56,984 nucleotides of DNA from a virus (lineage: Duplodnaviria > Caudoviricetes): the IMG/VR virus record IMGVR_UViG_3300037692_000675, positions 1 to 56,984 of that record; one strand, 5' to 3'. How positions within the stretch are numbered: the stretch's first letter is position 1; every line of letters begins with the position of its first letter. Positions 2,485 through 56,972 of the stretch are shown piece after piece. The position numbers and the translations under genes were made by a program. The notes under the pieces are model-generated. The model saw nothing but the letters and a program-made list of their open reading frames with translations. It was not told where the DNA came from and searched no databases.

Positions 2485-3785
2485 TCGGCCGCGATCCGCC
2501 GCGCCTGCAGCTCAAGCTCGTGCATCTCCTGCGGCGACCGCAGCGCCGGCCGCTGCTCCATGACGCCGTCCAGCACCACCTCGAGCGCCGCCACATTGCC
2601 CGCCAGCGAGAACTCCTCCCGGATGCGCTTCTGCCCGCCCTTGATCGCCTTCGCCCGGGTCCGCTTGTCCCGCAGCAGCTTCAGCGCCCCGGCGGCCATC
2701 GCGTCCGTGTCGCCCACGTCCACCGCGATCGCCAGGCCGCGCAGCACCTCCGCACACCCGCCCGCGAACGTGCTCACGATCGGCACACCCGCCGCCATCG
2801 CCTCCAGGAGCACCATCCCCAGGCCCTCCCAATCGCTCGGGTGCACCATCACGTCCGCGGCCGCGTACGCGAGCACGACCTCGTCATGGGGCAGCATGTA
2901 GTGCCAGGCGTCCACGCCCCACCGCAGCCCGATCTGCTGGCCCAGGCGCACGAAGTACTCGCTCGCCAGGCACGTCCCGACCATGAGCAGTTGCAGGTCC
3001 GGCTGCTGCTCGCGGGCCTTCACGAAGGCCTTCATGGCGTCCTCAGGCCGCTTCTCGGCGCTGAACCGCCCGCAGTACAGCATCACCGGCGCGTCCGGCT
3101 GCAGCCCAAACCGCCGCCGCGCCTCCGCCCGCCGCTCGCTCGCCTGCCCGTACCGCTCATACTTGATCGCGTTGCGGATGACCGTCGCCGGCGCATGGTC
3201 CGGCCGGTGGACCTCGATCTGCCGCAGCGTCGTCTCGCTGACCGCCACAATGGCCTGGCTGGGCATCGCCCACGAGTTCCAGCACCCGTAGCCGTGCCAG
3301 TACTCGACGATCGGGATCCCGTGCATGTGGGTGACCCAGAACGGCCCCCACGCGCACGAGATGATGAAGGCGTCATACTCCCGCTCCATCAGGAACCGCT
3401 GGAAGCCCGCGCACTGCTCGATCGGCGTGAAAGGCCCGGTCCGCTCCTGCGGGGTAAACGCCTCGAAGCCCTCGTTGAGCACGATCAGCTCATCGAACGC
3501 CTCGGCGAGGGGCACGAACGTGTCCAGCGCCTGCCACACGTAGGCATCCACAATGTACTTCTCCCGGCTCAGCCCCTCGGCGATGTCCCGGTTCACGGTC
3601 TCGACGCCCCCGCCGCACAGGTAGCTCCAGAAGATGCCCACACGCTTCCCCCGCCCGCCCCGCTGCCCTCTGATGACGCATGCCGTCGTCGCGTGGGCGC
3701 GCGTGTCCTCACGCGCGCGATTCGTCCGACACACCCGCGCCTCCCTCACCACACCCTTGTCCGTCCGGTGCACCAGCGTTTTCAT
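2442..3785 (-). CDS. GT4 (GT-B) glycosyltransferase, outer copy
   Basis: GGGVET, CGRFSAEKRP, PSDWEGLGMVLLEAMAAGVP motifs; nearly identical to 6813..8147. Confidence 0.9.
   Translation of the reverse strand: MKTLVHRTDKGVVREARVCRTNRAREDTRAHATTACVIRGQRGGRGKRVGIFWSYLCGGGVETVNRDIAEGLSREKYIVDAYVWQALDTFVPLAEAFDELIVLNEGFEAFTPQERTGPFTPIEQCAGFQRFLMEREYDAFIISCAWGPFWVTHMHGIPIVEYWHGYGCWNSWAMPSQAIVAVSETTLRQIEVHRPDHAPATVIRNAIKYERYGQASERRAEARRRFGLQPDAPVMLYCGRFSAEKRPEDAMKAFVKAREQQPDLQLLMVGTCLASEYFVRLGQQIGLRWGVDAWHYMLPHDEVVLAYAAADVMVHPSDWEGLGMVLLEAMAAGVPIVSTFAGGCAEVLRGLAIAVDVGDTDAMAAGALKLLRDKRTRAKAIKGGQKRIREEFSLAGNVAALEVVLDGVMEQRPALRSPQEMHELELQARRIAAERLCRRGCESRKSL
3689..3719 (+). repeat. REP-like hairpin family E (GCGTGGGCGCGCGTGTCCTCACGCGCG and GGGACCGCGGGCRTCYYGCCCGCG variants)
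   Basis: copies at ~3689 (in GT CDS), 4534, 4883; related hairpins at ~18788, 21200, 41617 (in CDS), 51392, 55266. Confidence 0.8.
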
Positions 3786-4513
3786 CGCAACCCCCCTGTC
3801 CGCGTCCACGAATACTCCAGGTCCGCCGTGCCGCCCGTCCAGCCTCCTCCCACCTCATCCGTCCGCAGGGCCATCACCCGGAACCGCGTCCCGTCCGTGC
3901 AGCTCGTGTCCAACAGGAAGATCACCCCCGGCGCCTCCGCGAATCGCGGTGGCTCTGCCCACCGGAACTCCTCCTCATGGTCCACCTCGATCGGCGCCAT
4001 CGCCCCTTCATCCAGCCCGTAGAAACCCTCCAGCACTCCGCTTCCGGACGTCTCGCCGATCTCCAGCCTAAAGCAGTTGCGGTCCACGCCGGGCGCGTTG
4101 TTGTCCACGCCCGTGACCTCGCCCGCCTCATCCAGCGTCATGGACCCCAGATACACCGCGCCGTCGGGCTTCTCTGGCGACAGTTGCGCCATGAACGCCA
4201 CCGCGCCGTCAGGCGCCGAGACGCTCGTGGTGTGTGCGAACACGAAGTTGACCGCATCGGCGATCAGCCCGGTCGCATCCTGGTCCGCGCTCGTCTCACA
4301 CCAGCACCCGGCCACCAACCCTTCGCCGGCCGCCACTTGCCCCTCCAGCGTCAGTTCCCATCCGGCGTGCGCGCCGTCGGCCAGCAGCTTCCGGATCACC
4401 TTGCCGACCACGCGGTCCACGGTCGCGGCCAGCCGGTTATGGTGGTCCGGCTCGATGATCTCATCGGTCACCACTCCGACCGCCAGCCCATAGTTCTCGC
4501 TTATCCCTGCCAT
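3782..4513 (-). CDS. putative tail/baseplate-associated protein of outer element
   Basis: N-half resembles 14109..15113 (NFVF/NYVH, VTGVDNN/VTAVDNS); C-half closely matches 8144..8473 (EGFYGL..FRVMALRTDEVGGGWTG..YSWTRTGGL). Confidence 0.65.
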   Translation of the reverse strand: MAGISENYGLAVGVVTDEIIEPDHHNRLAATVDRVVGKVIRKLLADGAHAGWELTLEGQVAAGEGLVAGCWCETSADQDATGLIADAVNFVFAHTTSVSAPDGAVAFMAQLSPEKPDGAVYLGSMTLDEAGEVTGVDNNAPGVDRNCFRLEIGETSGSGVLEGFYGLDEGAMAPIEVDHEEEFRWAEPPRFAEAPGVIFLLDTSCTDGTRFRVMALRTDEVGGGWTGGTADLEYSWTRTGGLR

Positions 4514-4577
4514 CTAGCCACTCTCCATCATCCGCGTGGGCGCCCGACCCCAAGGGTCGTCCGTGTCCTCACGCGCG

Positions 4578-4650
4578 CCGTTGCCGTTGTCGTTCCCCTC
4601 TCCGGAGCGAAGCGAGGGAGAGGGGTAGGGGTGAGGACGCCGTTCGCCGT
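4578..4650 (+). repeat. REP-like family A (CCGTTG..TTCCCCTCTCCGGAGCGAAGCGAGGGAGAGGGGTAGGGGTGAGGACGCCGTT)
   Basis: near-identical copies at ~4578, 51421, 51914, 55313, 55500, 56583; all in the same orientation. Confidence 0.9.
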
Positions 4651-4660
4651 TCACTCGCCA

Positions 4661-4867
4661 CTAACCACTCACCACTCTGCCGTACCGTCCCCGCCCATAC
4701 AGCCCCCTCCGCAGCACGCCGCCCTCCGCCGTCATCCGCATCAGGAACCGATTGCCGCCGCCCATCGCCGCCGCACCGCTGCGCCCCGCGGCCGTCGTCG
4801 TCGCCCCCCTCAACGCCGGCCGCACCTGCCGATCCACTACCCGCCGCACAATCTGCACAATGTCCAT
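4661..4867 (-). CDS. small hypothetical protein of outer tail cluster
   Basis: MDIVQIVRRVVDRQV; positional counterpart of 15106..15330. Confidence 0.5.
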   Translation of the reverse strand: MDIVQIVRRVVDRQVRPALRGATTTAAGRSGAAAMGGGNRFLMRMTAEGGVLRRGLYGRGRYGRVVSG

Positions 4868-4945
4868 CCTACCCGCTCCCGTCGCGTGGGCGCGCGTGTC
4901 CTCACGCGCGCTACCGTTTACTCGCCCACTCGCCCACTCAACCAC

Positions 4946-5432
4946 TCACTCACTCCCCAGCCACCGCCCCTCCACCGTCGTCACCGCCACCTCCCGCGGC
5001 CGCCGCCGCACCCGGTGCCTTACTGCCTCCACGCGATACAGCTCCCCATCCACGCCCACCGCCTCGCCGCCGTGGATCCGCATCACCTGCCCGACCCGCA
5101 CCTCGGGCAAGAGCGGCGTCACCACCAGCGCATGTTCGGGCCGCCCGCTCAGCTCCTCCAGCCGCTCCATCGCGAGCTGGTTCACCGCCTCGCGGGTCGT
5201 CGCCCCGGCTACGGTCGTCACATCCATCTTTCGCCAGCCCACATAGCGCGCCGACTGCGGGTCATGCAGCGACGCCGCATCGAAACACGTGGACCGCATC
5301 GGCCGCCCCTTGTCATCCACCCCGCACACGACGACGTAGTTCGCGTACTCCTCGTGCGCCAGGCTCCGCCGCGTCCGCCGCACGCCCAGCACCTCCCCCT
5401 CGGCCCCCGGTGTCGGCGCCTCTGTCGCCCGC
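4946..5432 (-). pseudogene. 3' part of tail-type gene interrupted by the prophage
   Basis: joins in frame with 49553..51365 across the TSD (..VRWELYTR|ATEAPT..); homologous to C-terminus of 15388..17634. Confidence 0.9.
5428..5432 (+). repeat. target site duplication, left copy (CCCGC)
   Basis: identical to 49553..49557; fits Mu NY(G/C)RN target consensus. Confidence 0.92.
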
Positions 5433-5499
5433 TGTAGATTCGCCAATTCTTTGCGAAATTCTCATTTTATTCAGTAAGCCGTGCCGCTTTAATTGAGAA
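5433..5499 (+). promoter_or_regulatory. prophage left end with putative transposase-binding sites
   Basis: AT-rich; minus-strand TTCGCAAAGAATTGGCGAAT (5438..5457) and TTCTCAATTAAAGCGGCAC (5481..5499) resemble right-end repeats. Confidence 0.8.
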
Positions 5500-6166: not shown

Positions 6167-6816
6167 GGCGTCACCTTCCGCAGGATGGCGTAGCGCCGTC
6201 GCCCGCCCCAGATCGCCGGTGTGATCCGCGTGAGCGCCAGGCCATGCCGCCGCTCGATGTCGGCCCAAATGTCCGCCGGCAGCGGGCAGATCGGCCAGTC
6301 GGCCGCTTGCCCTGGTTGCGGACCGTCCCCAGGCCAGAAGTCCATGCTCAACAGTCCGCCCGCGCACAACCAGCGCCGCGCATGATCCAGGATGATGTCG
6401 AGCTCAGACACCCCCTGATGGATAAAAAAGCTGGTGCCGAAGATGATGTCGAAGCCATTGTCCCAGGCGGCTTCCGCCTGCCAAACCGTGTGCGAAAAGA
6501 CGACATCCTCCCACTCCCGATAGCGTCCGCGCGCCACCTGCACGGCCACGCGGCTATGGTCCAGCCCCCAGTATCGTCCGCCCGCCGCCGCGACGTGGGC
6601 GGCGCAGCGCCCCACTCCGCACCCCAACTCCAACACCTGCGCGTCTTTGACCATGGCGCGAGGCACCAGCAGCTCCGTCTCCCAGAACAGCTCGTCGGAC
6701 TGCTCCTCGGCATCACACCACAACTGCGCCCCCCGCGCGTTCCACAGGTCCACTGTCGCTCTGTCCCAGGCGGCCAACTGCCCCTCCGTCACGTCCTGCC
6801 CAAAGATGTCGATCAT
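6163..6816 (-). CDS. class I SAM-dependent methyltransferase
   Basis: VLELGCGVGR, GLDHS, FDII, LCAGG motifs; ATGA overlaps with both neighbours. Confidence 0.85.
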   Translation of the reverse strand: MIDIFGQDVTEGQLAAWDRATVDLWNARGAQLWCDAEEQSDELFWETELLVPRAMVKDAQVLELGCGVGRCAAHVAAAGGRYWGLDHSRVAVQVARGRYREWEDVVFSHTVWQAEAAWDNGFDIIFGTSFFIHQGVSELDIILDHARRWLCAGGLLSMDFWPGDGPQPGQAADWPICPLPADIWADIERRHGLALTRITPAIWGGRRRYAILRKVTP

Positions 6817-8147
6817 CGCTTCTTTGCCTTCTTCCCGACCTGCGCGGCCGCGATCCGCCGCGCCTGCAGCTCGAGCTCGTGCATCTCCTGGGGTGACCGC
6901 AGCGCCGGCCGCTGCTCCATGACGCCGTCCAGCACCACCTCGAGCGCCGCCACATTGCCCGCCAGCGAGAACTCCTCCCGGATCCGCTTCTGCCCGCCCT
7001 TGATGGCCTTCGCCCGGGCCCGCTTGTCGCGCAGCAGCTTCAGCGCGCCGGCGGCCATCGCGTCCGTGTCGCCCACGTCCACCGCGATCGCCAGGCCGCG
7101 CAGCACCTCCGCGCACCCGCCCGCGAACGTGCTCACGATCGGCACGCCCGCCGCCATGGCCTCCAGGAGCACCATCCCCAATCCCTCCCAGTCGCTCGGG
7201 TGCACCATCACATCTGCGGCCGCGTACGCCAGCACCACCTCATCATGGGGCAGCATGTAGTGCCACGCATCCACGCCCCAGCGCAGCCCGATCTCCTGCC
7301 CCAGCCGCACGAAGTACCCGCTCGCCAGGCACGTCCCGACCATCAGGAGCTGCAGGTCCGGCTGCTGCTCGCGGGCCTTCACGAAGGCCTTCATGGCGTC
7401 CTCAGGCCGCTTCTCGGCGCTGAACCGCCCGCAGTACAGCATCACCGGCGCGTCCGGATGCAACCTGAACCGCCGTCGCGCCTCCGCCCGCCGCTCGCTC
7501 GCCTGGCCGTACCGCTCGTACTTGATCGCGTTGCGGATCACCGTCGCCGGCGCGTGCTCTGGCCGGTGGACCTCGATCTGCCGCAACGTCGTCTCGCTGA
7601 CCGCCACAATGGCCTGGCTGGGCATCGCCCACGAGTTCCAGCACCCGTAGCCGTGCCAGTACTCGACGATCGGGATCCCGTGCATGTGGGTGACCCAGAA
7701 CGGTCCCCACGCGCACGAGATGATGAAGGCGTCATACTCCCGCTCCATCAGGAAGCGCTGGAAGCCCGCGCACTGCTCGATCGCCGTGAACGGCCCGGTC
7801 CGCTCCTGCGGGGTGAAGGCCTCGAACTCCTCGTTGAGCACGATCAGCTCATCGAACGCCTGTGCCAGCGGCAGGAACGTGTCGAGCGCCTGCCACACAT
7901 AGGCGTCCACGATGTACTTCTCCCGGCTCAACCCCTCGGCGATGTCCCGGTTCACGGTCTCCACGCCGCCCCCGCACAGGTAGCTCCAGAAGATGCCCAC
8001 ACGCTTCCCCTGGCCGCCCCGCGCGCCCGGGATGACCAATGGGCCCACGGTGCCTTCCGGCGCCGCAGTGGGCTTCCTGGCGAAATTGATGACCCTGGGC
8101 TGGCTGACGACGCCCTTGCTCGTCCGGTGCACTACGGTCCTGTTCAC
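6813..8147 (-). CDS. GT4 (GT-B) glycosyltransferase, prophage copy
   Basis: EGLGMVLLEAMAAG (EX7E) and GRFSAEK motifs. Confidence 0.9.
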   Translation of the reverse strand: MNRTVVHRTSKGVVSQPRVINFARKPTAAPEGTVGPLVIPGARGGQGKRVGIFWSYLCGGGVETVNRDIAEGLSREKYIVDAYVWQALDTFLPLAQAFDELIVLNEEFEAFTPQERTGPFTAIEQCAGFQRFLMEREYDAFIISCAWGPFWVTHMHGIPIVEYWHGYGCWNSWAMPSQAIVAVSETTLRQIEVHRPEHAPATVIRNAIKYERYGQASERRAEARRRFRLHPDAPVMLYCGRFSAEKRPEDAMKAFVKAREQQPDLQLLMVGTCLASGYFVRLGQEIGLRWGVDAWHYMLPHDEVVLAYAAADVMVHPSDWEGLGMVLLEAMAAGVPIVSTFAGGCAEVLRGLAIAVDVGDTDAMAAGALKLLRDKRARAKAIKGGQKRIREEFSLAGNVAALEVVLDGVMEQRPALRSPQEMHELELQARRIAAAQVGKKAKKR

Positions 8148-8473
8148 TTCAAGCCCCCTGTCCGCGTCCAGCTATAATCCAGGTCCGCGTAGGCGTACCC
8201 CGTCCAGCCGCCGCCGACCTCATCGGTCCGCAGCGCCATCACCCGAAACTGGCTGCCGCCCGTGTAGCTGCAGTCCAGCAGATACGCCACACCGGGCGCC
8301 TCGGCGAACCGGGGCGCCTCCGCCCAGTGGAAGTCCCCGTCCACCAGGTGCTCGACCTCGATCGGCACCATCGCGCCCTCCGGCAGCCCATAGAACCCCT
8401 CCAGCGTGCCCGACCCCTCGATGGTCTCGGTGTTGTCCGCCCGGTCCCAGTGCAGCGTCTCGTGCGCCATCAT
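8144..8473 (-). CDS. small hypothetical protein, probably tail-associated
   Basis: translationally coupled to both neighbours; homologous to C-half of 3782..4513. Confidence 0.7.
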   Translation of the reverse strand: MMAHETLHWDRADNTETIEGSGTLEGFYGLPEGAMVPIEVEHLVDGDFHWAEAPRFAEAPGVAYLLDCSYTGGSQFRVMALRTDEVGGGWTGYAYADLDYSWTRTGGLK

Positions 8474-12012: not shown

Positions 12013-12211
12013 CCTCTCTCCACAAAATCGAAGAGCCGCCTAACGTCCACGCCCGGCAAGGGAACGAGGTCGCTGTATGGCGGCTCTCCGAAAGCGCAAA
12101 GACCTCGTTTGGGACAGGTCACTGTCCACCATGCCTTGCCGGGCACTCCGAGTTTGCGCTTTCACGAGAGCGATGTCAAGCTGCCGCCGTTGCCGTCTGC
12201 CGCCGCCGTCC

Positions 12212-12259
12212 GCGTCCCGGAGGGACGCTTCTCCCAGTCGGGGGTTTCAACCCCCGACT
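12212..12259 (+). repeat. REP-like family C (GCGYCCCGGAGGGRCGC..GGGGTTTCAACCCCCG)
   Basis: copies at ~12212, 21237, 37934, 38794 (in CDS), 44586 (in CDS), 51517, 55398; same orientation. Confidence 0.9.
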
Positions 12260-12293
12260 GCCTGCCCCGCCCGCCGTTGCCGTCTGCCGTCCC

Positions 12294-12325: not shown

Positions 12326-12327
12326 CG

Positions 12328-41335: not shown

Positions 41336-41340
41336 ATGAC

Positions 41341-46811: not shown

Positions 46812-46820
46812 GAGCAATTC

Positions 46821-47336: not shown

Positions 47337-49297
47337 ACATCACCGCCTCGCTCAAGCCCTTCCGGTTCGCCATCGAGGGTGGCACCCCGCAGCCGACCGT
47401 CGGCACCATGGGGTTCCAGACCATCGTGCAGTACGACACCTTGAGCCCGGGCGAGTACAACCCCGCCCTGCAGGGCGCCAAGGCCATCGGCATTTATGAC
47501 CGCATGCGCCGGTCGGACGGCCAGGCCAATGCCGTCGAGCTCATTACGAGCCTGCCGGTGTGCGCCCTCGACTGGCGGGTCGACCCCGGCGGTAAGGGCA
47601 GCACCGACAAAGAAGCCGCCGAGCTCATCCAGACCAACCTACTCGAGGCGATGGCCGTCTCGTGGGCCGAACTCCTGCGCCAGATGCTGCTCTCGCTGAT
47701 GTACGGTTTCTCGGTCCATGAAATCGTGTACGCGGTGGAGGGCAAGTACGTCCGCTGGGACGACTTCTTCCACATCCCCCATGCCAGCGTCGAAGAGTTC
47801 CAGTACGACCAGGGCCGCCTGTCCGCGATCCGCCAGGTCGGCTCGACCTACGACGGCTCCCAGGCCGACGTGACCATCCCGGCCGACAAGCTGCTCACCA
47901 CGACCTACCGCATGGAGGGCGGCAATGTCGCCGGCTTCCCCCTCTTCCGCCCCATGTACAAGCACTGGTGGTGTAAGGACGTCGCCTACACGATCCTGGG
48001 CATGGCCATCGAGTGCCTCATCATGGGCGTCCCGTGGGCCAAAGTCCCCAAGGGTACCAACGACGAGCAGAAGCGCAACCTGCTCTCCATCCTGGAGAAC
48101 ATTCGCGCCCGCGACAAGCGCGGGGTCGTGCTGGACAGTGACATCGACCTCAATCTGCTCGAGAGCAAGCGCGACCTGAAGATCGTGCTCGACTACATCA
48201 GCCATCACGACATCATGATGGCCCGCACGGCCCTGGCGCAGTTTCTCAACCTGGGCGCCACCGAGGTCGGCGCTCGCGGCCTGTCGGAGGATCACAGTAA
48301 AATCTTCATGATCGCCGAGCAGGCCCTGGCTGACATGGTCGCCACGGTCATGAACCGCGGCCCAATCCCCCGCCTCTGCCAGTACAACTGGCCCGGCCTG
48401 CAGGTCTTCCCGAAGCTGACCCACAGCCACATCCGCACTGTGCTGCGCCTCGAGCCGGTCCTCGAGGCCCTCGCGCACCTGGTCGCCGGCTCCCTGGTCA
48501 CGCCCGAGCTCGACCTCGAGAACCGCATTCGCCAGTTGCTCGATCTGCCGGAGCTCGCCGCGCCCGCCGCTCGGGCCGACAAATCGGCGGAGCCCGCTGG
48601 CGATGAGCCCCCTGATGAGGGCGGATCTGCGGACGCCGCCGACCAGTCTGAGCCGGATGACCAGCAGCGCGCGGCCACCGCGCCCGCAATCGCGCGCGCC
48701 CGGGCGCACGCAGCCTGCGAGCACCAGCCTTTGGCCTTTGCCGATCCACAGACCGCGGCCATCGGCGCGCTCTTCGAGCAGACCAACGACACCTTCCAGC
48801 GCACCGCCGGCAAGCTGCTCGATGACATGATCACTAAGCTCCACACAGCCGCCCGTACTGCGCTCGGCAAGGTCAGTCAGCCATTCTCGCGGGCGCGGCT
48901 CTACACGGCACTACAGGCGATCGAGCTGCCCGGCCAGGCGCGCTACGCCGCGGCGGTCCGTGACTACCTCACGACCCTCGCGGGCGCGGGCCGCCAGGCC
49001 GCGGCTGAGATCGCCGGCGCCGACGTGCCCGCCGCGTCCGCGGACGAGCGCAATCACATCAAGGCCCAGGCGGATCTCCTCGCGAAGCGGCACGTCGCCG
49101 AGCTCAAGGCGGTCTTCATCCAGCAGATACTCTCCGGCGCGCTCACCGATGTCCCGGTGGCCCAGGCTGTGGACGACGCCGCCCAGGCCGGCCGAGATCG
49201 CGTGAGCACGGAGTTCTCATCGTGGTTCCGTGAGGCGCTCGCGGCCTTCACCACCCAGCTGTCGCAGTCTATCTATCCGCAGGGGAGTGGATCATGA
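47333..49297 (+). CDS. Mu gp29-like portal (DUF935) with long C-terminal extension
   Basis: IYDRMRRSD..YGFSVHEIVY..PMYKHWWCK..LAQFLNLG..NRIRQLLDLP; ~190 extra aa after an acidic linker. Confidence 0.88.
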   Translation: MNITASLKPFRFAIEGGTPQPTVGTMGFQTIVQYDTLSPGEYNPALQGAKAIGIYDRMRRSDGQANAVELITSLPVCALDWRVDPGGKGSTDKEAAELIQTNLLEAMAVSWAELLRQMLLSLMYGFSVHEIVYAVEGKYVRWDDFFHIPHASVEEFQYDQGRLSAIRQVGSTYDGSQADVTIPADKLLTTTYRMEGGNVAGFPLFRPMYKHWWCKDVAYTILGMAIECLIMGVPWAKVPKGTNDEQKRNLLSILENIRARDKRGVVLDSDIDLNLLESKRDLKIVLDYISHHDIMMARTALAQFLNLGATEVGARGLSEDHSKIFMIAEQALADMVATVMNRGPIPRLCQYNWPGLQVFPKLTHSHIRTVLRLEPVLEALAHLVAGSLVTPELDLENRIRQLLDLPELAAPAARADKSAEPAGDEPPDEGGSADAADQSEPDDQQRAATAPAIARARAHAACEHQPLAFADPQTAAIGALFEQTNDTFQRTAGKLLDDMITKLHTAARTALGKVSQPFSRARLYTALQAIELPGQARYAAAVRDYLTTLAGAGRQAAAEIAGADVPAASADERNHIKAQADLLAKRHVAELKAVFIQQILSGALTDVPVAQAVDDAAQAGRDRVSTEFSSWFREALAAFTTQLSQSIYPQGSGS

Positions 49298-49387
49298 AGT
49301 AAGCAGGAAGGCGCCCGGCGCGCGCCGAACCGTCTGTCAGTCTGGGGTCGTCATCGGGGTGGTCTGGCCGTCGGTGAGGTGTTCTTT

Positions 49388-49552
49388 TTCGCAAATCGCG
49401 CGGCAAAGAAGCGTGTTGGTATTCGCAAAGTTCTCGGCAAATGGGCCCTCTCGCGGGGTCGCGCCTGACGGTCGTGCCTGCCGCAACCCCCATATTCGCA
49501 AGCCTCCCGGCAAATCCGACCTCCATATTCGCATCCCCAACGCACAATCACA
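49388..49552 (+). promoter_or_regulatory. prophage right end with four putative transposase-binding repeats
   Basis: TTCGCAA(A/G)-N5-CGGCAAA at 49388, 49422, 49495; degenerate copy at 49528; terminal ACA. Confidence 0.85.
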
Positions 49553-49557
49553 CCCGC
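49553..49557 (+). repeat. target site duplication, right copy (CCCGC)
   Basis: identical to 5428..5432. Confidence 0.92.
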
Positions 49558-51365
49558 GTATACAGCTCCCACCGTACCGTGTTGTCGCACGCCCCGGTCA
49601 GCGTCCCATCGTGGGCGATCACATCCGCCGCCGTCCGCTTCTGCCGGCAATACCGGCACGTCTTGCGGAACGCCCCGACCTCATCGAAGTAGATCGCCGC
49701 CTCATGATCGAACCGCGCGACCTCCTCGAGAAACTCCGCCCACGACCGCCCCGGCTCCACCTGCCACGCCGGCTCCTCCACCGTCCCCGTGGTCATGACG
49801 GTCCCGGTGTCCTCCAGATCCTGCTCGCTCTCGGGCACGCCGCACCGCCCGAGCACCCACCGGAACACGTCGCGCACCAGCCACCCGTCGAACACCGGCG
49901 TGCGCCCATCGGCCTTCTCATCCCGCAGCCGCACCATCGGGTCGAGCACACTGATGACGGCCTCGCTCATCCCGCCGCCCGCCATCCGCACCGGCGGCTC
50001 GACCAGGTGCCCGTCCACGATCTGCCCGAGCGCCTCGCTCCCGTCGCTCATCCGCCACCCCAGCGCCAGGCTCGTCCGCCGGTTCTCCTGCAAGCCCGCA
50101 TGTTGCCCTCGCTGGTTATCCAGCGCCACGCGGTACTTTGCCGTCGGCTTATCCGCCGCGTGCTCGCCCTCGACTGCCAGCGCATCCGCCGACAGCTCCT
50201 GGTACGCCGGCTCGCCCACCGGCGTCAGCTCCGCCGCCTGCGCCACCTGCGCCGTCAGCCACTCCGGCGACACCCACGTCTCGAAGTCCACCTGCTCCCC
50301 CGTGTCCGGGTCAACCCCGACCTCCTCCTCGTGGTGCCGGTACGGGTTGATCTGCACCTGCCATGACCGCTCGGTCTCGCTCAGCCCTTCCCGCCCGGCC
50401 GTGTCGTCAATGATGACCGGCGTCGCCAGGACCGCGTGGTCATCATCCATGACCGGGATCATCCGCCCCTCGACCAGTACCGCGCCTCCTGATTCCTGCG
50501 TCAAAAACCCCGCCTCGATCGCCGGACTCTGCACCGTCGCCGGTACCATCTTCATCGGCAGGAACGACAGCGCCCACTGCCCGGCGTTGTGCCACGCCGT
50601 CACCTTCCCGCTCTTGACCTCCACGGGCCCGTGATCCTCATACACCCACACCGCCTGCGCGAACGCATCTGTGGACACCGCCAGCTTCCCGCGCAGCACC
50701 CCGACCCACATCAGCATCCGCTGCCCGCGCGCCACGCCCTCCAGCGACCCCAGCGATACCTGGTAGCCCTCTCCCGTCAGTGTCCGCCACTCGCTCCCCA
50801 CCCGGTGCAGCGCCCGGATCGCCCCCGCGTACGGGATCAGCAGCACCCACTCCTCCTCCTCGCGGATGCCGAAGTGGATCTCGGTATACGGCGGCCGCGA
50901 CCAGTCATGATCCGACGCCGGCTCGGCCCGGTACAGCGAGAACGCGAACAGGGGATTGTGGGGCAGCGTGAACCGGCTCTCCAGCCCGGTCGTGCGGTTG
51001 CTGGTCCCATCGGACTGATAGAGCTTGATCTCCTGGTTCAGCCCCAGGCCCCGCAGTGCGTGCCACGTCCCGCCCACCGTCGCAAAGTGCCCCAGCCCGA
51101 TGCCCTGGGACGTATCCGCGAACGGCCGGCAGATCACGCTATTGATCTTCTTGTCCTGCACGTGCAGCGCGGTGGGGAAGGGCGCCGGGTAGCCTTGCAC
51201 CCACAGTCCCAGCTCGCCCGCATCCACAACGCTGACCCGCGCCTGTTCATCCTGCATGACGTCGCCGGCGATGTCATACTGCCCGAAGCCGTCATAGCGT
51301 ACCCGTGCTTCCGGCCCGGGCTCATACATGCGCACCCGCGCGATCGGATGTACTCGTGAACTCAT
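49553..51365 (-). pseudogene. 5' part of tail-type gene interrupted by the prophage
   Basis: ORF runs into prophage end; rejoins 4946..5427 to give 765 codons. Confidence 0.88.
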
Positions 51366-51592
51366 CCTTGTCTCCTGCCGTTGCCGTTACCGGGACCGCG
51401 GGCGTCTCGCCCGCGCGCCGTTGCCGTCTGCCGTTACCGTTGTCGTTCCCCTCTCCGGACCCCGAGCGAAGTCGAGGGGGAGGGAGAGGGGTAGGGGTGA
51501 GGACGCCGTTCCGCGTGCGTCCCGGAGGGACGCTTCTCTGAGGCGAAGCGGTCGGCACGACCGCATTTCAACCCCCGACTGCGGCTCAGCCA

Positions 51593-51901
51593 CTACAAAC
51601 TCCCCTCGAACACCCACGTCTCCCCATCGTCCCCGCTCACATACACATCAATGTCGGGCGTCCGCGCCACAGCCACCACCAGCCGCCGCCCCTGGCTCTC
51701 GGTCTTGATCAGCCCCGCCCGCGCCTCATCTGCCGCCGCTGCCACGAGCCTCTCCTCACTGCCGTCCACAAACCTCAGCCAGGTCTGCCCCCCATCCGCC
51801 GTCCTCCGGATGTACACCGCCCCCTCCCGATATCCGGTCAGATACACGATGCCGTTATGCTCCACCATCGTCGGATATGTCAGCCCACCCACCGTCGCCA
51901 T
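51593..51901 (-). CDS. small Asp-box (BNR) protein
   Basis: GGAGG RBS; TADGGQTW and SGDDGETW. Confidence 0.65.
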   Translation of the reverse strand: MATVGGLTYPTMVEHNGIVYLTGYREGAVYIRRTADGGQTWLRFVDGSEERLVAAAADEARAGLIKTESQGRRLVVAVARTPDIDVYVSGDDGETWVFEGSL

Positions 51902-51997
51902 ACCGCCTCCATGCCGTTGCCGTTGTCGTTCCCCTCTCCGGAGCGAAGCGAGGGAGAGGGGTAGGGGTGAGGACGCCGTTCGCCGTTCACTTGCCAC

Positions 51998-54900
51998 TCA
52001 ACCACTCAACCACTCCTCCCCATCATCCACCGACACCCACCCCACCGTATCCCCCTCGCGCTGCCAGAACAGCCTCAGCCGCCCCCCCTCATCCTTCTCC
52101 GCGCACGGCTCCGTGTTCTCACCCTCACTCGTGATCTGCCGGGCCTCCTGCCACGGGTTGGCCAGGCCTTCCCGCCGCTGCATCCAGATGTTCCCCTCGC
52201 GCGCGTAGAAGATGAACATTTGCTCGACCGCATCGTCCATCAGGTGCGGCCCGCTCGCTCCGCCGCTCCAGCCGAGCTGCAGCGCCGCCGGCGTCGCCCG
52301 CCGCTCCTCGACCGGCGTCCCCAGCGGGCTCGCCAACAGCCCCACATCGTTCACGACCGTGAACCGGCACGCCGCCCCTGCCGGCTCGACCACCCGCGCC
52401 CCCGTCACTGCCACATACAGTCCGCACCCGCGGTACGGACTCGCCTTCCGCTCCGCGGCCCACTTGCCGACCGCCTTCAGCGCCACCACATCACTCAGCG
52501 GCCTGTCCGCGTTTGGCCCCCGCGTTCCCGCCGGGATCACCACCCGCACGGTCTCCTGGCTGCCATTCTCCAGCCGGCAGTCCAGCTCGACGGTCACCTC
52601 CGCCGCCTGGCTGTACTCGGTCGGAAACACGAGCTTCATCTGCGTCACGCCCAGGTTCCGGTCCACCTCCGGCAGCGCCCCGAACCACGCCAGGTCATGC
52701 CCCGCCGTGAACGCTGGCGTGCCTTCACTATCGAACCGCCCGAACCCCAGCCCCTCCGCAACCTCGTCCACATGCTGTGCGAACCACCGCAACGCATTAG
52801 TCGCCTGCCCGGCCCCGCTCTGGGTCAGGTAGTTGTCATTCTCCTCATACAGATCCGGCCGCCAGTGGTACCGGATGTCATACCTCCGACTCCCCCCACC
52901 CCTCGGCACTACCACGGATTCCAACCGGTGACCGCTGCCTTGCCCCCCCTCCCCCGTGGGGAGGGGGCCGGGGGGTAGGGCGGGCGTCGTAAAATGTGTC
53001 CTCCCATCCATCGCGTTCCCCATCCCGAACGCCATCGCACACTGCCAGCAACACCCTCGCACAAACCCCGCCGCGCTCGGGTCCCGCCACAGCGGCCCGC
53101 CGCAGTACGGGCACACCAGGTCCGCGAAGCACGCCCTCCGCGCCGCGCCGCCGATCGCCGTCACCTGTGTGAACCACTCATGCGCCCCGAACTCCAGCCC
53201 GATCCGCGCCGCCTCCGGCAGCTCCAGCCCGATGGCCTCCCCGCACCCGGTCACGACCCCGCCGTGTACCTTGCCGCCGATCAGGAACTTCGCCTCCGGA
53301 TAGAACCCCGCCGCCCGGTACTGTCCTGGCAGCGTCTCATACTCCTCGAACGACTGCGCCTCCAGACAGAACTCATTCAGCAGCACTTCCCTTGGCGTGC
53401 GCAGCCGGTAGTACCGCAGCTGCGGCCCGCCGACGATCAGCTCGTTGATGTCCTCGACATGTCGGTACTTCGGCAACGTCTCGACCGTCACCCAGCCCCC
53501 GTACGCCGCCTCCGTGGTCCCGAACTGCGCCTCCGTCTCGATGTCCTCGACGACGATCTCATCCTGCACGTACTGGAAGTTCGCGTGCCCCCGGTCGCCC
53601 TTGCGCCACGCCTCCGGCTTGTACATCTCGGCGAACCCCGCGTACGCCCGGGCCCCCAGCACCACATCCGAGTAGGGGAAACCCAGCACCGGCACCGACC
53701 CCCACTGCGGGTCATGTACCCACGGGTCGCCCCCGAACCCCTCCGCCGGAATCTCCGCCTCCCAGTATCCGCCGCCATCCGTCGTCGCGATCGCCTCGCC
53801 GACCACGCCGCTCTCATAGTCAATCGGCACGATGGCGATCCCCGCCGCCGGCACCCCCATCCGCTCATACACTCGCCCGGCGATCAGGTTGCCGCCCTGG
53901 TCGTAGAAGTCCATCACGCCCATGCCGACCGTGGCCGTGCCGCCTTCCTGCACCCCTACGATCTGCCGCGCACACCCCCACTCCGACTCCCATTCCCCCC
54001 ACCCGTTCAGCTTGAACTGCACCACCCCATGCTCGCCCGTCGGCAACCCCTCGACCGTGACGCTCCCCTCCGCGCCGATCAAGTAGTTCCCGCCGCTCTC
54101 ATCCAGCGTCCCGACCTTCACCCACGCCCCCGGTTCGCCGCTCACCACCAGCTTGCCGCTCAAGATGTCAATGACCGCCTCGGTCCCTTCGCTCAGTTCC
54201 GCCTTCCGCCCCAGGTACGCCATCGCTAGCCGCGTCAACTTCCGCGGCGGCGCCTGGCTCGCTGTCTCCTCACTGTCATCCCGCCGGTCCCCCTCGCGCT
54301 GGTAGATCGCGCCGTGCCCCTTCGGGCAGATGAACGCCCACCGCCCGTCCTCGCCGGTCATGATCGGCGCAGTCACCAGCGCCCCCTCGACCCACGTCTC
54401 CAGCGTGTCCGACCAGATCAGCTCGTTGTACTCGAGGCTGTCCCAGAATATCGCCGCCCCGCCCGGCCCCTCGACGACACCTTCCAGGCTGACATTCGCG
54501 CCCTCCTGCGGCACGCCGTCATGCAGCACCCGCCCCCGCACCCAATACCCCATGACACAGGTCTCACTCAGGGGTGCCGCCGCGTACCCCACCCCTTGTA
54601 TCCTCCGCCCCCAGTACGGGTCATCCACCATCACCGCATACTGCGGCTCCAGCTCGAACTCGCCGCCCACGAACCCCAGCTGTCCGGTCGCGAGCTTCTG
54701 GATCAGGTACACCGCCACATTCGGCAGCATCACCTCCGGCGTCCGCGCCTTGTACACCATCACCTCGATGGTCCCGGCCGCCGTCGCGAAGCTCGCACTC
54801 CCGCCGCTGGTGTACTGCCGCTGCACGGTGACGCCGGCCTCGCCTCCCAGCCGGATGACCTCCGGCTCCCACCCGCCATCCTCCCCGGCCTGCAGCAGCC

Positions 54901-55222
54901 CCCACGCCTCCTCCAGCTCCCCGACCTCGCTCCACGTCCGCACCGGCGCCCCATGCAAGAGCCCCAACAGCTGGCCCAGCGCCACGACCGCCTGCCCCTT
55001 GTCCCGCTCCTCCCCTGCCGTCCGATCCTCCGCCTCCCAATCGAACGCATGGCTCCCATCATCCCGCCAGTTGAGTTCGATGAGCGCCAGGATGCAGTAG
55101 CTCAGCACGGCCTTCAGCGCGGCGGTATTGGCCGGATTGTCTTGGGCCTCTGCCTCTTTGGCCCGGATGTCATTGACGAGCCCTTCCAGCCTCTCACCCA
55201 GCCCGGGATTCACCTGCCCCAT
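51998..55222 (-). CDS. large multidomain protein of outer tail-like cluster
   Basis: beta-sandwich-like repeats (VRGRVL..GANV; IAGRVY..TTDGGGYW), CPYC..CWQC, C-terminal SVDDGEEW; in-frame REP at ~52942. Confidence 0.7.
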   Translation of the reverse strand: MGQVNPGLGERLEGLVNDIRAKEAEAQDNPANTAALKAVLSYCILALIELNWRDDGSHAFDWEAEDRTAGEERDKGQAVVALGQLLGLLHGAPVRTWSEVGELEEAWGLLQAGEDGGWEPEVIRLGGEAGVTVQRQYTSGGSASFATAAGTIEVMVYKARTPEVMLPNVAVYLIQKLATGQLGFVGGEFELEPQYAVMVDDPYWGRRIQGVGYAAAPLSETCVMGYWVRGRVLHDGVPQEGANVSLEGVVEGPGGAAIFWDSLEYNELIWSDTLETWVEGALVTAPIMTGEDGRWAFICPKGHGAIYQREGDRRDDSEETASQAPPRKLTRLAMAYLGRKAELSEGTEAVIDILSGKLVVSGEPGAWVKVGTLDESGGNYLIGAEGSVTVEGLPTGEHGVVQFKLNGWGEWESEWGCARQIVGVQEGGTATVGMGVMDFYDQGGNLIAGRVYERMGVPAAGIAIVPIDYESGVVGEAIATTDGGGYWEAEIPAEGFGGDPWVHDPQWGSVPVLGFPYSDVVLGARAYAGFAEMYKPEAWRKGDRGHANFQYVQDEIVVEDIETEAQFGTTEAAYGGWVTVETLPKYRHVEDINELIVGGPQLRYYRLRTPREVLLNEFCLEAQSFEEYETLPGQYRAAGFYPEAKFLIGGKVHGGVVTGCGEAIGLELPEAARIGLEFGAHEWFTQVTAIGGAARRACFADLVCPYCGGPLWRDPSAAGFVRGCCWQCAMAFGMGNAMDGRTHFTTPALPPGPLPTGEGGQGSGHRLESVVVPRGGGSRRYDIRYHWRPDLYEENDNYLTQSGAGQATNALRWFAQHVDEVAEGLGFGRFDSEGTPAFTAGHDLAWFGALPEVDRNLGVTQMKLVFPTEYSQAAEVTVELDCRLENGSQETVRVVIPAGTRGPNADRPLSDVVALKAVGKWAAERKASPYRGCGLYVAVTGARVVEPAGAACRFTVVNDVGLLASPLGTPVEERRATPAALQLGWSGGASGPHLMDDAVEQMFIFYAREGNIWMQRREGLANPWQEARQITSEGENTEPCAEKDEGGRLRLFWQREGDTVGWVSVDDGEEWLSG

Positions 55223-55447
55223 GCGATCCTGCCTCTCTGCCTCGTGTGTGTGTCGTGCCGCTATCGGGACCGCGAAGCGGACCGCAGGTCCGCAGGGCGT
55301 CTCGCCCGCGCGCCGTTGCCGTTCCCCTCTCCGGAGCGAAGCGAGGGAGAGGGGTAGGGGGGAGGACGCCGTTCAGCCTTTGCCTTCCGCCGTTGATGCG
55401 TCCCGGAGGGACGCTTGTCTCAGGCGGGGGTTTCAACCCCCGCCCGG

Positions 55448-56137
55448 CTACCGACTCAACTCCAGCCTCAGATCCTCTTCCTCATCAAACTCCGCTCGCC
55501 GTCGCCGTTCGCCGTTCCCCTCTCCGGAGCGCAGCGAGGGAGAGGGGTAGGGGTGAGGATGTCGTTCGTCGGGTCGTTGCTGTTCGCCGTCCCCCCCTCC
55601 CTGTTCAGGGAGGGGGGGCAGGGGGGGTAGGCGGTCGTTGCCGTCTGCCGTCCCCCTCCCCTGTGGGGAGGGGGTGCCCTGCGCAGCAGGGCGGGGGTAG
55701 GCGCCGTCGGAGGGGCCGGCTATTAGCCGGCCCGTCGTTCGGATCTCCTCCCCCCAACCCTCCTCCTCGACCGCCTCTGCCTTCCGCCTCTGCCTTCCCC
55801 CCTCGCGCTCCTCGACTCTTGCCTTCAGCCTCTCCCGCAACTCCCCCAGCCGCCTCGCCTCCCGCCGCCGCCGTTCGGGGTAGGGGATAGGGGACACGCC
55901 CTCTGCCTGCCGCCTCTCCTCAACTCTCAGCTCCCCGTCTCGCTCGCGTCTCGCCTCGGCCTCCCCGCCTCCGCCCCCAACCGTCGCCGCCTCGACTCCC
56001 TCCACCACCACCGCCTCAACCTCAACTGCCTCCGCCGCCTCCGCCTCCACCATCCCCACCACTGCCTTCGCCATCGCCAGCATCCTGGGCAGCACCGGCG
56101 CCGGCGCGCGCCGCACGATCTCATGGCTCGCCCTCAT
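55448..56137 (-). CDS. charged hypothetical protein in tape-measure position, carrying stacked in-frame repeats
   Basis: ATGA-coupled to chaperone extension; open frame through 55500..55740 repeat stack. Confidence 0.5.
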   Translation of the reverse strand: MRASHEIVRRAPAPVLPRMLAMAKAVVGMVEAEAAEAVEVEAVVVEGVEAATVGGGGGEAEARRERDGELRVEERRQAEGVSPIPYPERRRREARRLGELRERLKARVEEREGGRQRRKAEAVEEEGWGEEIRTTGRLIAGPSDGAYPRPAAQGTPSPQGRGTADGNDRLPPLPPLPEQGGGDGEQQRPDERHPHPYPSPSLRSGEGNGERRRRAEFDEEEDLRLELSR

Positions 56138-56469
56138 GCTTGCCGCGCCCCTTTGCCCTGCCAGAATGCCGCCCACAGCTCCACCTTCCACGCCGGCTGC
56201 CGCGCATACGCCTCACCCGTGGGCAACTCCCCGGTCGCCTCATGCAGCCGCAGCTCCCGCATCACCGCCAGCACGAGCACCGCCCACGCCGGCACGCGCA
56301 CCGCCTCGGCCTCACTCCCCGCCAGCAGCGCCGCCGCCTCCCGCGCCTCCGTAAAGTCCACGCCCTCGCGCAGCCTCACCGCCGCCTCCGGCAGCTCCCC
56401 CGCGAGCAGCTCTGCCGGCCCCGCCATCAGGCCTTGCTCCTGCCGCCCGAGCTGCCTCAGCCTTTTTTT
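56134..56469 (-). CDS. -1 frameshift extension of outer tail assembly chaperone
   Basis: A AAA AAA (56463..56469) just before stop; -1 frame gives KKRLRQ...LPTGEAYARQPAW. Confidence 0.65.
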   Translation of the reverse strand, partial: KKRLRQLGRQEQGLMAGPAELLAGELPEAAVRLREGVDFTEAREAAALLAGSEAEAVRVPAWAVLVLAVMRELRLHEATGELPTGEAYARQPAWKVELWAAFWQGKGARQA

Positions 56470-56972
56470 GCGGTCTCGATCACCGCCCGCTGCTCCGGCA
56501 GCCGCCGGTTCACGCGCTCGATCTCGCGGTGCAGCCACTCCGCCAGCGCCGGCTGCATCCGCCCCAGCACCTCCGCCGCCGCGCCGTTGCCGTTGTCGTT
56601 CCCCTCTCCGGAGGCCGAAGGCCGAGGGAGAGGGGTAGGGGTGAGGACGCCGTTGGTTTCCGCACCCCGCCCGATCCTCCGCTCCACAATCGTCCCATCA
56701 CTTTGCACTTCCGGCACACACGCCTCCACCACACAGTGCTCATGGTCATACTCGGCCATGAGCCGCAGATCATACGTCCGCCGCACGCGCACCGCGGGCT
56801 CTTGCAGCCCGCCCGTGACCAGTTCATACTCCTCGGCCAGCCCCAGGCTTTCGCGTTCCAGGGCCTCAGCCTCAGTCAGCGCCCTCAGCCTCACCCACGG
56901 CCTGCATTCCCATCCAGGCACTTCCACCGGCGCCTCGATCACGATGCTCCTCTCGACGCCCGGCCCACACAC
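56457..56972 (-). CDS. tail assembly chaperone-like protein of outer element
   Basis: GAGGAG RBS, GTG start, WVRLRALT..WLHREIERVN, slippery site at 3' end; in-frame family A repeat. Confidence 0.65.
   Translation of the reverse strand: MCGPGVERSIVIEAPVEVPGWECRPWVRLRALTEAEALERESLGLAEEYELVTGGLQEPAVRVRRTYDLRLMAEYDHEHCVVEACVPEVQSDGTIVERRIGRGAETNGVLTPTPLPRPSASGEGNDNGNGAAAEVLGRMQPALAEWLHREIERVNRRLPEQRAVIETAKKG

Follow-up and report, generated by a model that had tools for sequence, protein, structure and literature searches.

Why should hairpin repeats that lie at gene junctions all be read on the same strand, when the genes around them are transcribed in two directions? This question is raised by the virus record IMGVR_UViG_3300037692_000675, a single contig of 56,984 bp (its full length is called the window here), which is classed as a provirus in IMG/VR and given a completeness of 51% by CheckV. 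The window contains a Mu-like transposable prophage between two flanks, and many of its gene junctions are occupied by GC-rich hairpin families and by tandem runs of 6-9-mers, for which a uniform + strand polarity had been proposed from the sequence alone (the original prediction). As judged by comparison with genomes related to the probable host, this overlay is DNA of the repetitive extragenic palindrome (REP) type, or of the type of the REP doublets forming hairpins (REPINs), and its strict polarity is tied to the sign of the GC skew. On balance, we lean towards a reading in which a REP-type overlay has acquired its polarity through a strand-specific process linked to replication; the identity of the repeats is much more secure than the cause of their polarity.

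The overlay is read on one strand

The prophage has a minus arm (5433-32960) with leftward genes and a plus arm (32961-49552) with rightward genes, and the left flank (1-5432) and the right flank (49553-56984) are coded on the minus strand. Gene calls in the window are GC3-based. The window was scanned systematically, and orientation counts are given as + strand : - strand; the stems of families A and B are palindromic, and the orientation of these two was set by loop and flanks. The hairpin families and tandem runs were indeed found at gene junctions, far above chance, and the scan gave no reverse-oriented copy of the hairpin families A, B, C and E in the window, as the original prediction had claimed from the copies then inspected. 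Composite B was counted 7:0 (0 expected in 100 shuffles), family C 7:0 (all copies at E<=2.4e-7 by covariance model with filters off), family E 2:0, and family A 4:0 at up to 5 mismatches, or six loci, all on the + strand, when a looser stem pattern was used. The minus-strand matches of family C at E<0.1 were weak palindromic shadows of the same loci, plus one match of 12.5 bits (55264-55306) that is unlike family C. The short repeats were similarly polar: GCCGTTGCCGTT was found 9:0, GTTCCCG 26:0, CTCTGA 18:1 and CCGTTG 53:4, and in the whole window the 5' CGTT-CCCC junction of the hairpins was 11:0 and the 3' GGGGT[AG]GG tail 18:6. GCCGTT was 65:1 in intergenic DNA (left flank 5:0, minus arm 32:0, plus arm 12:1, right flank 16:0) and only 17:10 in coding DNA; a first-order Markov model of the intergenic + strand gave an expectation of 4.3:2.0, against 56:1 counted. 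This skew, being intergenic and not coding, is unlike the behaviour of motifs of the FtsK-orienting polar sequence (KOPS) or Chi type. The GGGTAGG(G) of the tails was considered as a KOPS candidate and rejected, with GGGNAGGG at 22:20 overall.

The polarity of GCCGTT, B and C is supported as independent of the direction of transcription, since in the plus arm GCCGTT is still 12:1, B 4:0 and C 3:0, and one heptamer array (44374-44392) is also read on the + strand there. For three other repeats the same claim of the original prediction could not be assessed, because in plus-arm intergenic DNA GTTCCCG and CATCCT have 0 copies and CCACTC is 1:1 (0:5 in the coding DNA of that arm). What the polarity is tied to, rather than transcription, is the sign of the GC skew, which is constant over both arms: the window (68% GC) has a skew of -0.01 to -0.30, below zero in all 2-kb bins, and the + form of the elements lies on the C-rich strand throughout, including the plus arm, in which the coding strand is C-rich.

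These counts bear on the explanation that the elements have their function in RNA, whether as terminators, as stabilisers of mRNA or as translation signals. They are intergenic, and their stems are stable (-10.6 to -21.3 kcal/mol when folded as ssDNA); moreover, the heptamer and octamer runs of the minus arm stand directly after stop codons in the mRNA sense, as does an octamer run after a + gene at a host locus (L076). Such a role is nevertheless extremely unlikely for the overlay, given that the orientation of GCCGTT, B and C does not flip between the arms. No family hairpin was called as an intrinsic terminator and none is followed by a T-tract, terminator-like sites stood at shuffle level (7 against 6.9 expected, in each of two scans), and Rfam 15 gave 0 matches in the window at the gathering score.

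Structure of the families and their arrangement

The hairpins of the window are GC-rich imperfect palindromes (6 copies of A, 7 of B, 7 of C and 2 of E), nearly all intergenic and nearly all with GCCGTT-type sequence on either side; every hairpin copy and array of the window listed in this section is read on the + strand. A family A cassette consists of a GCCGTT array, the hairpin CCCCTCTCC...GGAGAGGGG, the G-rich tail TAGGGGTGAGGA and GCCGTT again, as at 4577-4662 (hairpin 4595-4625). Further cassettes lie at 51913-51998 (hairpin 51931-51961), which is 99% identical to the first, at 55306-55391 (55324-55354), at 55499-55584 (55517-55547) and at 56583-56660 (56601-56635), and a variant with a long loop (51448-51491) is followed by the tail and a family C variant. 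All six A copies lie in the 12.9 kb of flank and none in the 44 kb of prophage. The family B composite, CCCCTCCCC-TGT-GGGGAGGGG followed by a second GC hairpin and GGGGTAGG, is found at 30779-30823, in the plus arm at 36570-36614 and 42824-42870, and in the right flank at 55653-55701. Short forms lie in the plus arm at 43215-43247 (with four G-tracts) and 43617-43649, and a B element stands in frame within a 1074-aa open reading frame (ORF) at 52946-52979.

Family C is formed by the hairpin GCGTCCC-GGA-GGGACGC, a spacer of ~10 nt and the hairpin CGGGGG-TTTCAA-CCCCCG. Its copies are at 12199-12262 (74 bits) and 21226-21289 (68.5 bits), in the plus arm at 38781-38845 (70.3 bits) and 44574-44638 (72.6 bits), and in the right flank at 55385-55448 (72.8 bits), with two variants, one in the plus arm at 37922-37997 (34.2 bits; with an additional hairpin in place of stem 2's 5' half) and one in the right flank at 51504-51577 (36.6 bits). 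Both stems are kept across 25 copies from the window, from the phage relative L001 and from G001, a metagenome-assembled genome (MAG), to an extent not reached in any of 500 shuffles or in the slid controls; all of helix 1 is paired (100%), and it shows the compensatory changes GC<->CG (15:10) and UA<->CG (18:7), and helix 2 has one compensatory pair (23:2). The family E hairpin, GGAGGGGCCGG-CTATTAG-CCGGCCC followed by GCCG, is found at 18750-18777 and, in the right flank, at 55706-55733.

Among the tandem runs listed by Tandem Repeats Finder were those of CTGACCT (12294-12324 and 15354-15378), (C/T)GTTCCCG (21349-21379, 24804-24862 and 26616-26653) and GCCGTT (51417-51447). The array (TGTTCCCG)n spans 24796-24863, with arrays of the same kind at 21349-21379, 26486-26511 and 26616-26653; the octamer array (CTCGCCCA)n spans 30168-30198 (related runs at 4652-4677, 4920-4959 and 51994-52015), and the heptamer array (CTCTGAG)n spans 28955-28980 (related runs at 15354-15378, 25576-25605 and 27914-27939, besides the plus-arm run given above). 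In the plus arm, a GCCGTT array and (CTGTTCTT)n fill the junction between the transposase and MuB-like genes (35220-35272). A typical junction (12186-12327) reads GCCGTT-type array, family C, GCCGTT-type array, (CTCTGAC)n and the stop codon of the right-hand gene. Such modules also recur as units of fixed order: array, A, tail and C follow each other at 51420-51590 and again at 55306-55445, and likewise at 1494-1840 of L001.

The tails of the B-type hairpins are canonical four-tract G-quadruplex motifs on the otherwise C-rich + strand (43227-43247, 43629-43649, 20054-20081, 52958-52980 and others), and their first two G-tracts could instead pair with the upstream C-tracts, so that the tail could be a hairpin/quadruplex switch. 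As a feature common to the overlay the G-quadruplex was rejected: 7 motifs are on the + strand, all at hairpin tails, yet 18 are on the - strand, and it therefore does not unify the families. The in-frame REP cassettes in ORFs read as Pro/Gly-rich stretches; the B copy at 52946-52979 encodes PALPPGPLPTGEGGQG in the 1074-aa ORF, and the G001 contig that carries the homologue ends at the same position.

The repeats are of the REP/REPIN type

G001 is an Armatimonadia MAG of 5.9 Mb that is related to the host (85% nt identity in the stretch of a 605-aa flank gene that G001 and the window share) without being the host itself. Three of its Y1 (HUH) transposase genes are flanked by repeats of the window. 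At locus L126, a gene for a 144-aa Y1 transposase has family C on both sides, as inverted doublets and direct copies. At locus L165, the gene for an enzyme that matches the NCBIfam model 'REP-associated tyrosine transposase' (RAYT) with 96.9 bits (cut-off 80) is flanked by tandem 81-nt units in which the family E hairpin, as found at 18750-18777 of the window, is followed by GCCGTTGG, with GCCGTT. At locus L122, a third Y1 gene lies between two units of ~230 nt, each with hairpins and a (GNCGTT)n array. The NCBIfam cut-off for IS200/IS605 transposases is passed by the enzymes of L126 and L122, and Y1_Tnp matches numbered 5-10 per MAG in all four Armatimonadota MAGs searched. Since families C and E and the (GNCGTT)n arrays flank Y1 genes in G001, the repeats of the window are of the REP/REPIN type. 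The original prediction had assigned them to trans-acting enzymes of the HUH class (IS200/IS605, RAYT) encoded outside the window, and both points are borne out, the window having no Y1_Tnp match at E<=1; its further proposal of an undescribed system has to be given up. By these comparisons, then, the overlay belongs to the REP/REPIN-type DNA of the host lineage, and the genes for its enzymes lie outside the window.

The search for family B points to the same lineage. The exact 21-nt B stem-loop was found in 118 genome-contig stretches from many phyla, nearly always followed by further G-tracts, and had 0 exact matches in IMG/VR. The full syntax (GCCGTT flank, hairpin B, second GC hairpin, GGGGTAGG and GCCGT) was found in Armatimonadia/Armatimonadota MAGs, and a Chloroflexi-labelled MAG has the same two hairpins and the GGGGTAGG tail without the GCCGTT flanks. 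The bare C4TC4/G4AG4 hairpin with a G-rich tail is thus widespread, and therefore only the composite syntax points to Armatimonadota, which probably include the host of the phage.

The GTAG-type boxes expected 5' of REP palindromes are less regular. Among 14 C copies of G001, GTAGG or ATAGG abuts stem 2 in ten, ATAGC is found in two, and TAG is absent from two; at the same position the window copies have CAGG, CAGT or AAGG, and the L001 copies ACAGA, ATAGA and similar. In families A and B, GGGGTAGG stands 3' of the hairpin, not 5', and CGTT precedes the A/B hairpins at 11 sites on the + strand and 0 on the - strand.

The polarity belongs to the phage DNA

The uninterrupted insertion site was identified by sequence comparison as contig L135 of G001, whose bases 3-966 correspond to window 50516-49553 (85% nt identity) and whose bases 957-2461 continue directly into window 5436-3897 (71%). 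The left junction reads CCCGC|TGTAGATTCGCC and the right junction CAATCACA|CCCGC; the G001 site has one CCCGC, and therefore the prophage is the 44,120-bp segment 5433-49552, with TG...CA ends and the 5-bp target-site duplication CCCGC at 5428-5432 and 49553-49557. The prophage splits an ORF that is continuous in L135, into parts at 49548-51365 and 4946-5446. A Mu-like prophage with separate flanks, as originally described, is thus confirmed.

These flanks, as judged by their genes and composition, are not ordinary chromosome; they belong to another phage-like element of the same sequence style. The left flank has the C-terminal part of the split gene (4946-5446), and the right flank, dense in families A, B, C and E, has a 605-aa ORF, which is the N-terminal part of that gene (49548-51365), and the 1074-aa ORF (51998-55222). 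The 605-aa protein is distantly related (24% over 347 aa) to the product of a 916-aa ORF in the tail-gene region of the prophage (15388-18138), and the tail genes of flank and prophage are co-oriented. In G001, the homologues of flank genes are on 2-kb contigs with AACGGC repeats and a GC skew of +0.24 to +0.27 in the coding sense, compared with a skew within about ±0.1 on the largest G001 contigs (400 kb). Because the flanks are phage-like and have homologues of prophage tail genes, the polarity that they share with the prophage is not independent evidence.

The relatives of the phage are more informative. L001 and L002 are IMG/VR contigs with ~75% nt identity to the window and synteny with 29894-49517, and they were the only relevant matches to the family C core in IMG/VR; L204, which has 3 copies of the core, was rejected as a relative, as it has 28% GC and is unrelated. 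Each of the two contains 7 family C cores, all in the orientation of the window, together with B-type, A-like and other GTAGG-headed hairpins and arrays on the same strand, in positions and combinations unlike those of the window. Neither in the window nor in L001/L002 were inverted doublets or reverse copies of B, C or E found. In more distant metagenome relatives (L136-L140; large terminase, TerL, 41-71% aa identity), GCCGTT was 22:2 and the GC skew -0.11 to -0.17, with TerL on the + strand. Equivalent junctions are occupied by different families in the window and in L001/L002, and the similarity of family C copies is higher within a genome (0.87-0.89) than from the window's prophage to L001 (0.80). 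Within each lineage there is thus turnover of the elements, with a single orientation relative to the phage throughout. The only comparison of a filled with an empty site is offered by L002, in which a cassette of ~125 nt (A-type tail and C variant, ~4335-4460) lies in frame in the transposase ORF (3037-5115), forming an insert of ~42 aa in the MuA-like protein that is lacking from the window; ~17 nt are replaced and the boundaries are not clean.

The original prediction had held that the polarity follows the replichore of the host and that the repeats were written after integration at the present site. Flanks and prophage do share one polarity, the prophage C copies are slightly closer to a canonical flank C copy (0.89, n=4 pairs) than to each other (0.87), and host arrays lean to the C-rich strand (38/57, see below). 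We nonetheless judge this account to be very unlikely. Relative to the phage genes, the polarity is the same in relatives from other samples and contexts (L001/L002 and L136-L140). L001/L002 already contain B and C, and the flanks are themselves phage-like, of the same style and with tail genes co-oriented with those of the prophage. Moreover, the confinement of all six A copies to the flanks has a chance of ~0.0004 if copies fall randomly on intergenic DNA (2.2 of 8.2 kb in the flanks; our own arithmetic), and therefore argues against uniform writing across the region after integration. By the sequence comparisons, the strict polarity is a property of the phage DNA, not of the present integration.

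The overlay also depends on the repeat system of the host. GCCGTTGCCGTT exceeded its reversed control in many of 61 genomes of the order of G001 (246 against 50 in G006, 205 against 73 in G002 and 71 against 7 in G062). The sole TerL relative found in 67 genomes of that order (G016:C10, 43% aa identity) is a Mu-like prophage. Its genome is poor in arrays (12, with 5 in the control), and the prophage has no overlay, no hairpin family and no strong skew; on its 79-kb contig GCCGTT is 24:27, and there are 0 forward arrays and one reverse array, which lies outside the prophage region. With the window query, no MuA-like protein was found in G001-G004 apart from one weak partial match in G003.

Replication and recombination as possible sources of the polarity

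In the reading towards which we lean, Y1 (HUH) transposases of the host, both RAYT and IS200-like, would act in trans on single-stranded DNA (ssDNA). The elements would colonise permissive gene junctions, and a few in-frame coding sites, of the prophage and of the phage-like element around it, and their insertion or their survival would be strand-specific relative to replication. A transposable phage that is repeatedly replicated by a fork started at one end would then amplify the polarity. We infer, in other words, that host enzymes write the repeats into phage DNA and that the direction of replication sets their polarity, by a bias in insertion or in survival. In Mu, the fork usually starts from the same end, as it would in the present phage on this reading. 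That Mu replication starts at one of two end forks is stated in bioRxiv 10.64898/2026.05.30.728999, and that Y1 transposases use ssDNA, chiefly the lagging-strand template, in bioRxiv 10.1101/279083.

The host chromosomes were examined for a corresponding bias, with replichore orientation assessed only by proxy, on chromosomal stretches of three genomes of the host's order. Tandem arrays were used for this comparison instead of single hexamers, whose counts in G002 (25:26 and 19:44) have little weight, the gene calls being poor (~30% called intergenic). Arrays lay on the locally C-rich strand in 38 of 57 cases (G006 27/37, G001 6/11, G002 5/9), and in the window 14 of 14 did; given the non-independence of arrays that share a contig, the host figure is no more than suggestive. 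In skewed G001 contigs (L134, L135 and L173) the + form of the elements is on the C-rich strand, as in the window.

Several observations weigh against a replication-linked origin of the polarity. The bias of the host arrays is weak and, as said, drawn from non-independent arrays; among the matches listed, G006/G025 arrays more than 1 kb apart were in the same orientation in 4 cases and in opposite orientation in 7. In G001 the B composites are 17:19, mostly inverted pairs 100-280 nt apart, and the C cores 5:14, with doublets. In a survey covering the P. fluorescens group, the inverted doublet is taken as the unit that moves (PMC3390384). If whole REPINs were inserted and then decayed at random, the phage would have copies in both orientations, and therefore an extra orienting step is needed. 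The [G/A]TAGG box found ahead of stem 2 in the host copies of C is lacking from the phage copies. The sign of the skew is a further difficulty: the + strand of the window is rich in C and T, not in G and T as is typical of replication skew, and the element strand in sense with the Y1 genes of G001 lies, in the window, on the C-rich strand, which the usual skew rule makes the leading-strand template, the reverse of the IS608 pattern. Finally, A-tail plus C cassettes recur as units, which fits copying by recombination as well as it does transposition.

This last point leads to the explanation that cassettes have spread within the phage by recombination or gene conversion between junctions, with no role of Y1 enzymes in the phage: the polar GCCGTT arrays and the G-rich tails would serve as short homologies, and the orientation of existing arrays would propagate the polarity. 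Cassettes of several modules do recur in fixed order (51420-51590, 55306-55445, the L002 insert, and L001 1494-1840), GCCGTT-type sequence brackets nearly every hairpin, and copies are more alike within a genome than between relatives. In run X1, the probable source run, whose contigs inform on presence and break points only, all 15 of the joints listed between repeat copies were same-strand (at least 15; 28 further joints lie outside this listing). Among the sequencing runs listed none was of RNA, and a further run, X2, has only a small share. We take this explanation seriously, while regarding it as unlikely, for it leaves unexplained how array polarity first arose in both arms and why it is tied to a constant GC skew, as well as the weak skew-linked bias of the host chromosomes and the presence of the same families on either side of Y1 genes in the host lineage. 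As a further sign of dependence on the repeats of the host, X1 contigs break at repeats, and their word depth is 168-306 in repeat-rich bins against ~9-32 elsewhere, so that the families must be much more numerous in the community than the phage itself.

A different role, as cis-acting signals of the phage on one strand (for example priming or primosome-assembly sites on the lagging-strand template, strand-specific nick sites or oriented translocase signals) whose co-orientation is selected, would account for the conserved occupancy of junctions between the window and L001/L002 despite differing families, for the strict polarity conserved in the lineage, for stems maintained by compensatory change, and for a density ~20-27x that of G001 (B, 7 per 57 kb against 36 per 5.9 Mb; C core, 5 per 57 kb against 19 per 5.9 Mb). 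The copy numbers of MAGs are underestimates, since assemblies break at repeats. Moreover, one family can stand in for another at a given junction, flank and prophage differ in their families (A is flank-only), copies lie inside ORFs, an unlikely place for a signal, the same families flank Y1 transposase genes in host DNA, and the Mu-like prophage of G016 has none of them. We hold such a role to be quite improbable.

The replication-linked reading can be taken further, to the proposal that transposable (Mu-type) phages are preferred substrates for the HUH/Y1 elements of their hosts. Each lytic round would copy the phage from one end and expose the same strand as ssDNA, on which REP-type hairpins would accumulate, singly and in one polarity, to 20-100x the density of the chromosome. 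The phage may for its part have adopted the hairpins as strand-specific signals, e.g., for lagging-strand priming or as hairpin/quadruplex switches. We consider this extension distinctly unlikely. If it were true, REP orientation would record the direction of phage replication, and a new interplay between two classes of mobile elements would have been found.

Relation to known systems

The overlay resembles the REP/REPIN-RAYT systems of Escherichia coli (bacterial interspersed mosaic elements) and Pseudomonas fluorescens SBW25 in its short GC-rich imperfect palindromes with many intergenic copies, in the presence of several families per genome with Y1/HUH genes flanked by their own family (L126, L165 and L122 of G001), in the inverted doublets of G001, and in its locally co-oriented tandem arrays, oriented arrays being known from SBW25 (PMC3116915). 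REPs, REPINs and RAYTs are well described in the same paper. Unlike those systems, the window has no inverted doublets, its copies being single or tandem and co-oriented over 57 kb; its hairpins come with hexamer-to-nonamer arrays and G-rich tails in fixed order; and the GTAG box that is clear in host C copies is not seen in phage C copies. Prophages, like other mobile elements and other recently acquired DNA, are reported to be free of REP elements in the P. fluorescens group and are described as 'REP deserts' (PMC3390384), whereas the present prophage is denser in these elements than the related MAG.

With IS200/IS605 elements and palindrome-associated transposable elements (PATEs) the overlay has in common the kind of enzyme, two of the three flanked G001 transposases passing the NCBIfam IS200/IS605 cut-off, and the hairpin as the kind of end structure that is recognised. 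Strand-specific orientation is a further likeness, as for insertion into ssDNA at forks (bioRxiv 10.1101/279083). In contrast to these elements, no pair of left and right ends that bounds a unit and no target tetranucleotide could be defined in the window; the sequence before the A/B hairpins is CGTT. Under the usual skew rule, the elements would also differ from IS608 in having the opposite sign of polarity relative to GC skew. The tandem units of 6-9 nt resemble the intergenic heptamer repeats of Xanthomonas (GGGAATC) and Nostoc (GGGGA(T/C)T), being almost wholly intergenic and near one ORF, and the other strand of the (GTTCCCG)n runs has quadruplex-capable G3 tracts (PMC4692102). For the Xanthomonas repeats, the same paper reports no strand or leading/lagging preference, whereas the arrays of the window are all on one strand.

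The phage itself is like Mu in its MuA-, MuB- and Gam-like genes, Mu-type portal, protease I, TG...CA ends, 5-bp duplication and insertion in a gene. It differs from Mu in that its genes form two arms that diverge, the transposase and the repressor lying mid-genome and the head genes being divided between the arms.

We know of no REP overlay described for Mu-like phages, and a narrow full-text literature search, which did not extend to supplements, gave no paper on REPs inside phage genomes or on a co-oriented REP overlay. The kind of element is known; what is unusual is the density and the strict single polarity of REP-type elements in the DNA of a transposable phage. No other DNA in view carries REPs as densely as the prophage and the phage-like DNA next to it, and only one half-orientation is present there. 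If the elements are inserted strand-specifically into a phage that replicates unidirectionally, this would be a natural system for the study of strand choice by RAYTs and of single-REP mobility, and the replication direction of uncultured phages could be read from sequence. For annotation, such repeats matter in that they break metagenome assemblies, sit in frame in genes and point to an Armatimonadota host.

Gene layout of the prophage and further observations

The gene names used here were assigned by matches to PHROG and Pfam families. The hallmarks of a Mu-like phage include matches to phrog_310 (8.3e-59) and phrog_296 (5.6e-27), Gam, Portal_Mu and Mu-like_Pro, besides the TG...CA ends and the 5-bp duplication. 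The minus arm carries tail, head and repressor genes, with the helix-turn-helix repressor at 32316-32960, the Mu-like protease I at 30209-31360, a scaffold-like gene at 28991-30115, the tail tube at 25604-26449 and the tape measure at 22714-24792; two glycosyltransferases are among the leftward genes. The plus arm carries the MuA-like transposase, the MuB-like protein, Gam, the large terminase and the Mu-type portal; its rightward genes span 33086-49297, and leftward genes resume from 49548. Neither did a megablast of window positions 33000-53000 against GenBank phages give a match, nor a scan of the window any tRNA.

TTCGCAA-type sites are repeated at the right end of the prophage (49380-49552, + strand), with an inverted TTTGCGAA at the left end (~5449-5456), and the right-end sites are probably binding sites of the transposase. 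The motif TTCGCAAAGTTCTCG is found exactly at 21640-21654 and 49422-49436 and with 3 mismatches at 25036-25050, always on the + strand. The copy at 49422 lies among the right-end TTCGCAA sites and is kept in L001, and the two internal copies lie at tail-gene junctions. As an end site this motif was rejected, every copy being on the + strand and an inverted copy being absent within 3 mismatches.

In the flanks, PHROG and Pfam searches of the ORFs tested gave only a glycosyltransferase, for 2442-3809 (ORFs 1-396 and 55927-56124 were outside the scan), and the 605-aa protein had no IMG/VR relative by pattern search. The flank glycosyltransferase (2442-3809) and a prophage glycosyltransferase (6813-8147) have 91% aa identity, with 300 nt at 97%, and the C-terminus of a 243-aa flank protein has 74% aa identity to the product of prophage ORF 8144-8473. 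These near-duplicate modules (2442-4513 and 6813-8473) suggest a recent exchange between the two phage-like elements. The gap between ORFs at 671-1198 has two similar stretches of ~260 nt (TCCTCATCC... then ...CACACTG), possibly a pair of small minus-strand paralogues that escaped the GC3 calls. X1 contigs end exactly at the junction of prophage and right flank (49525-49554), with a depth of 10.9 against 9.9 on the two sides, and this break fits alternative continuations in the population, i.e., the prophage inserted elsewhere or the site left empty.

In the minus arm, the sole clear T-tailed terminator of the tail and head genes is at 27791-27825 (- strand), with a 14-bp stem followed by TTTTTTT, and is distinct from the repeat families. 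A 114-nt tandem repeat (29433-29711; 2.4 copies, 75% matches) lies inside the scaffold-like gene.

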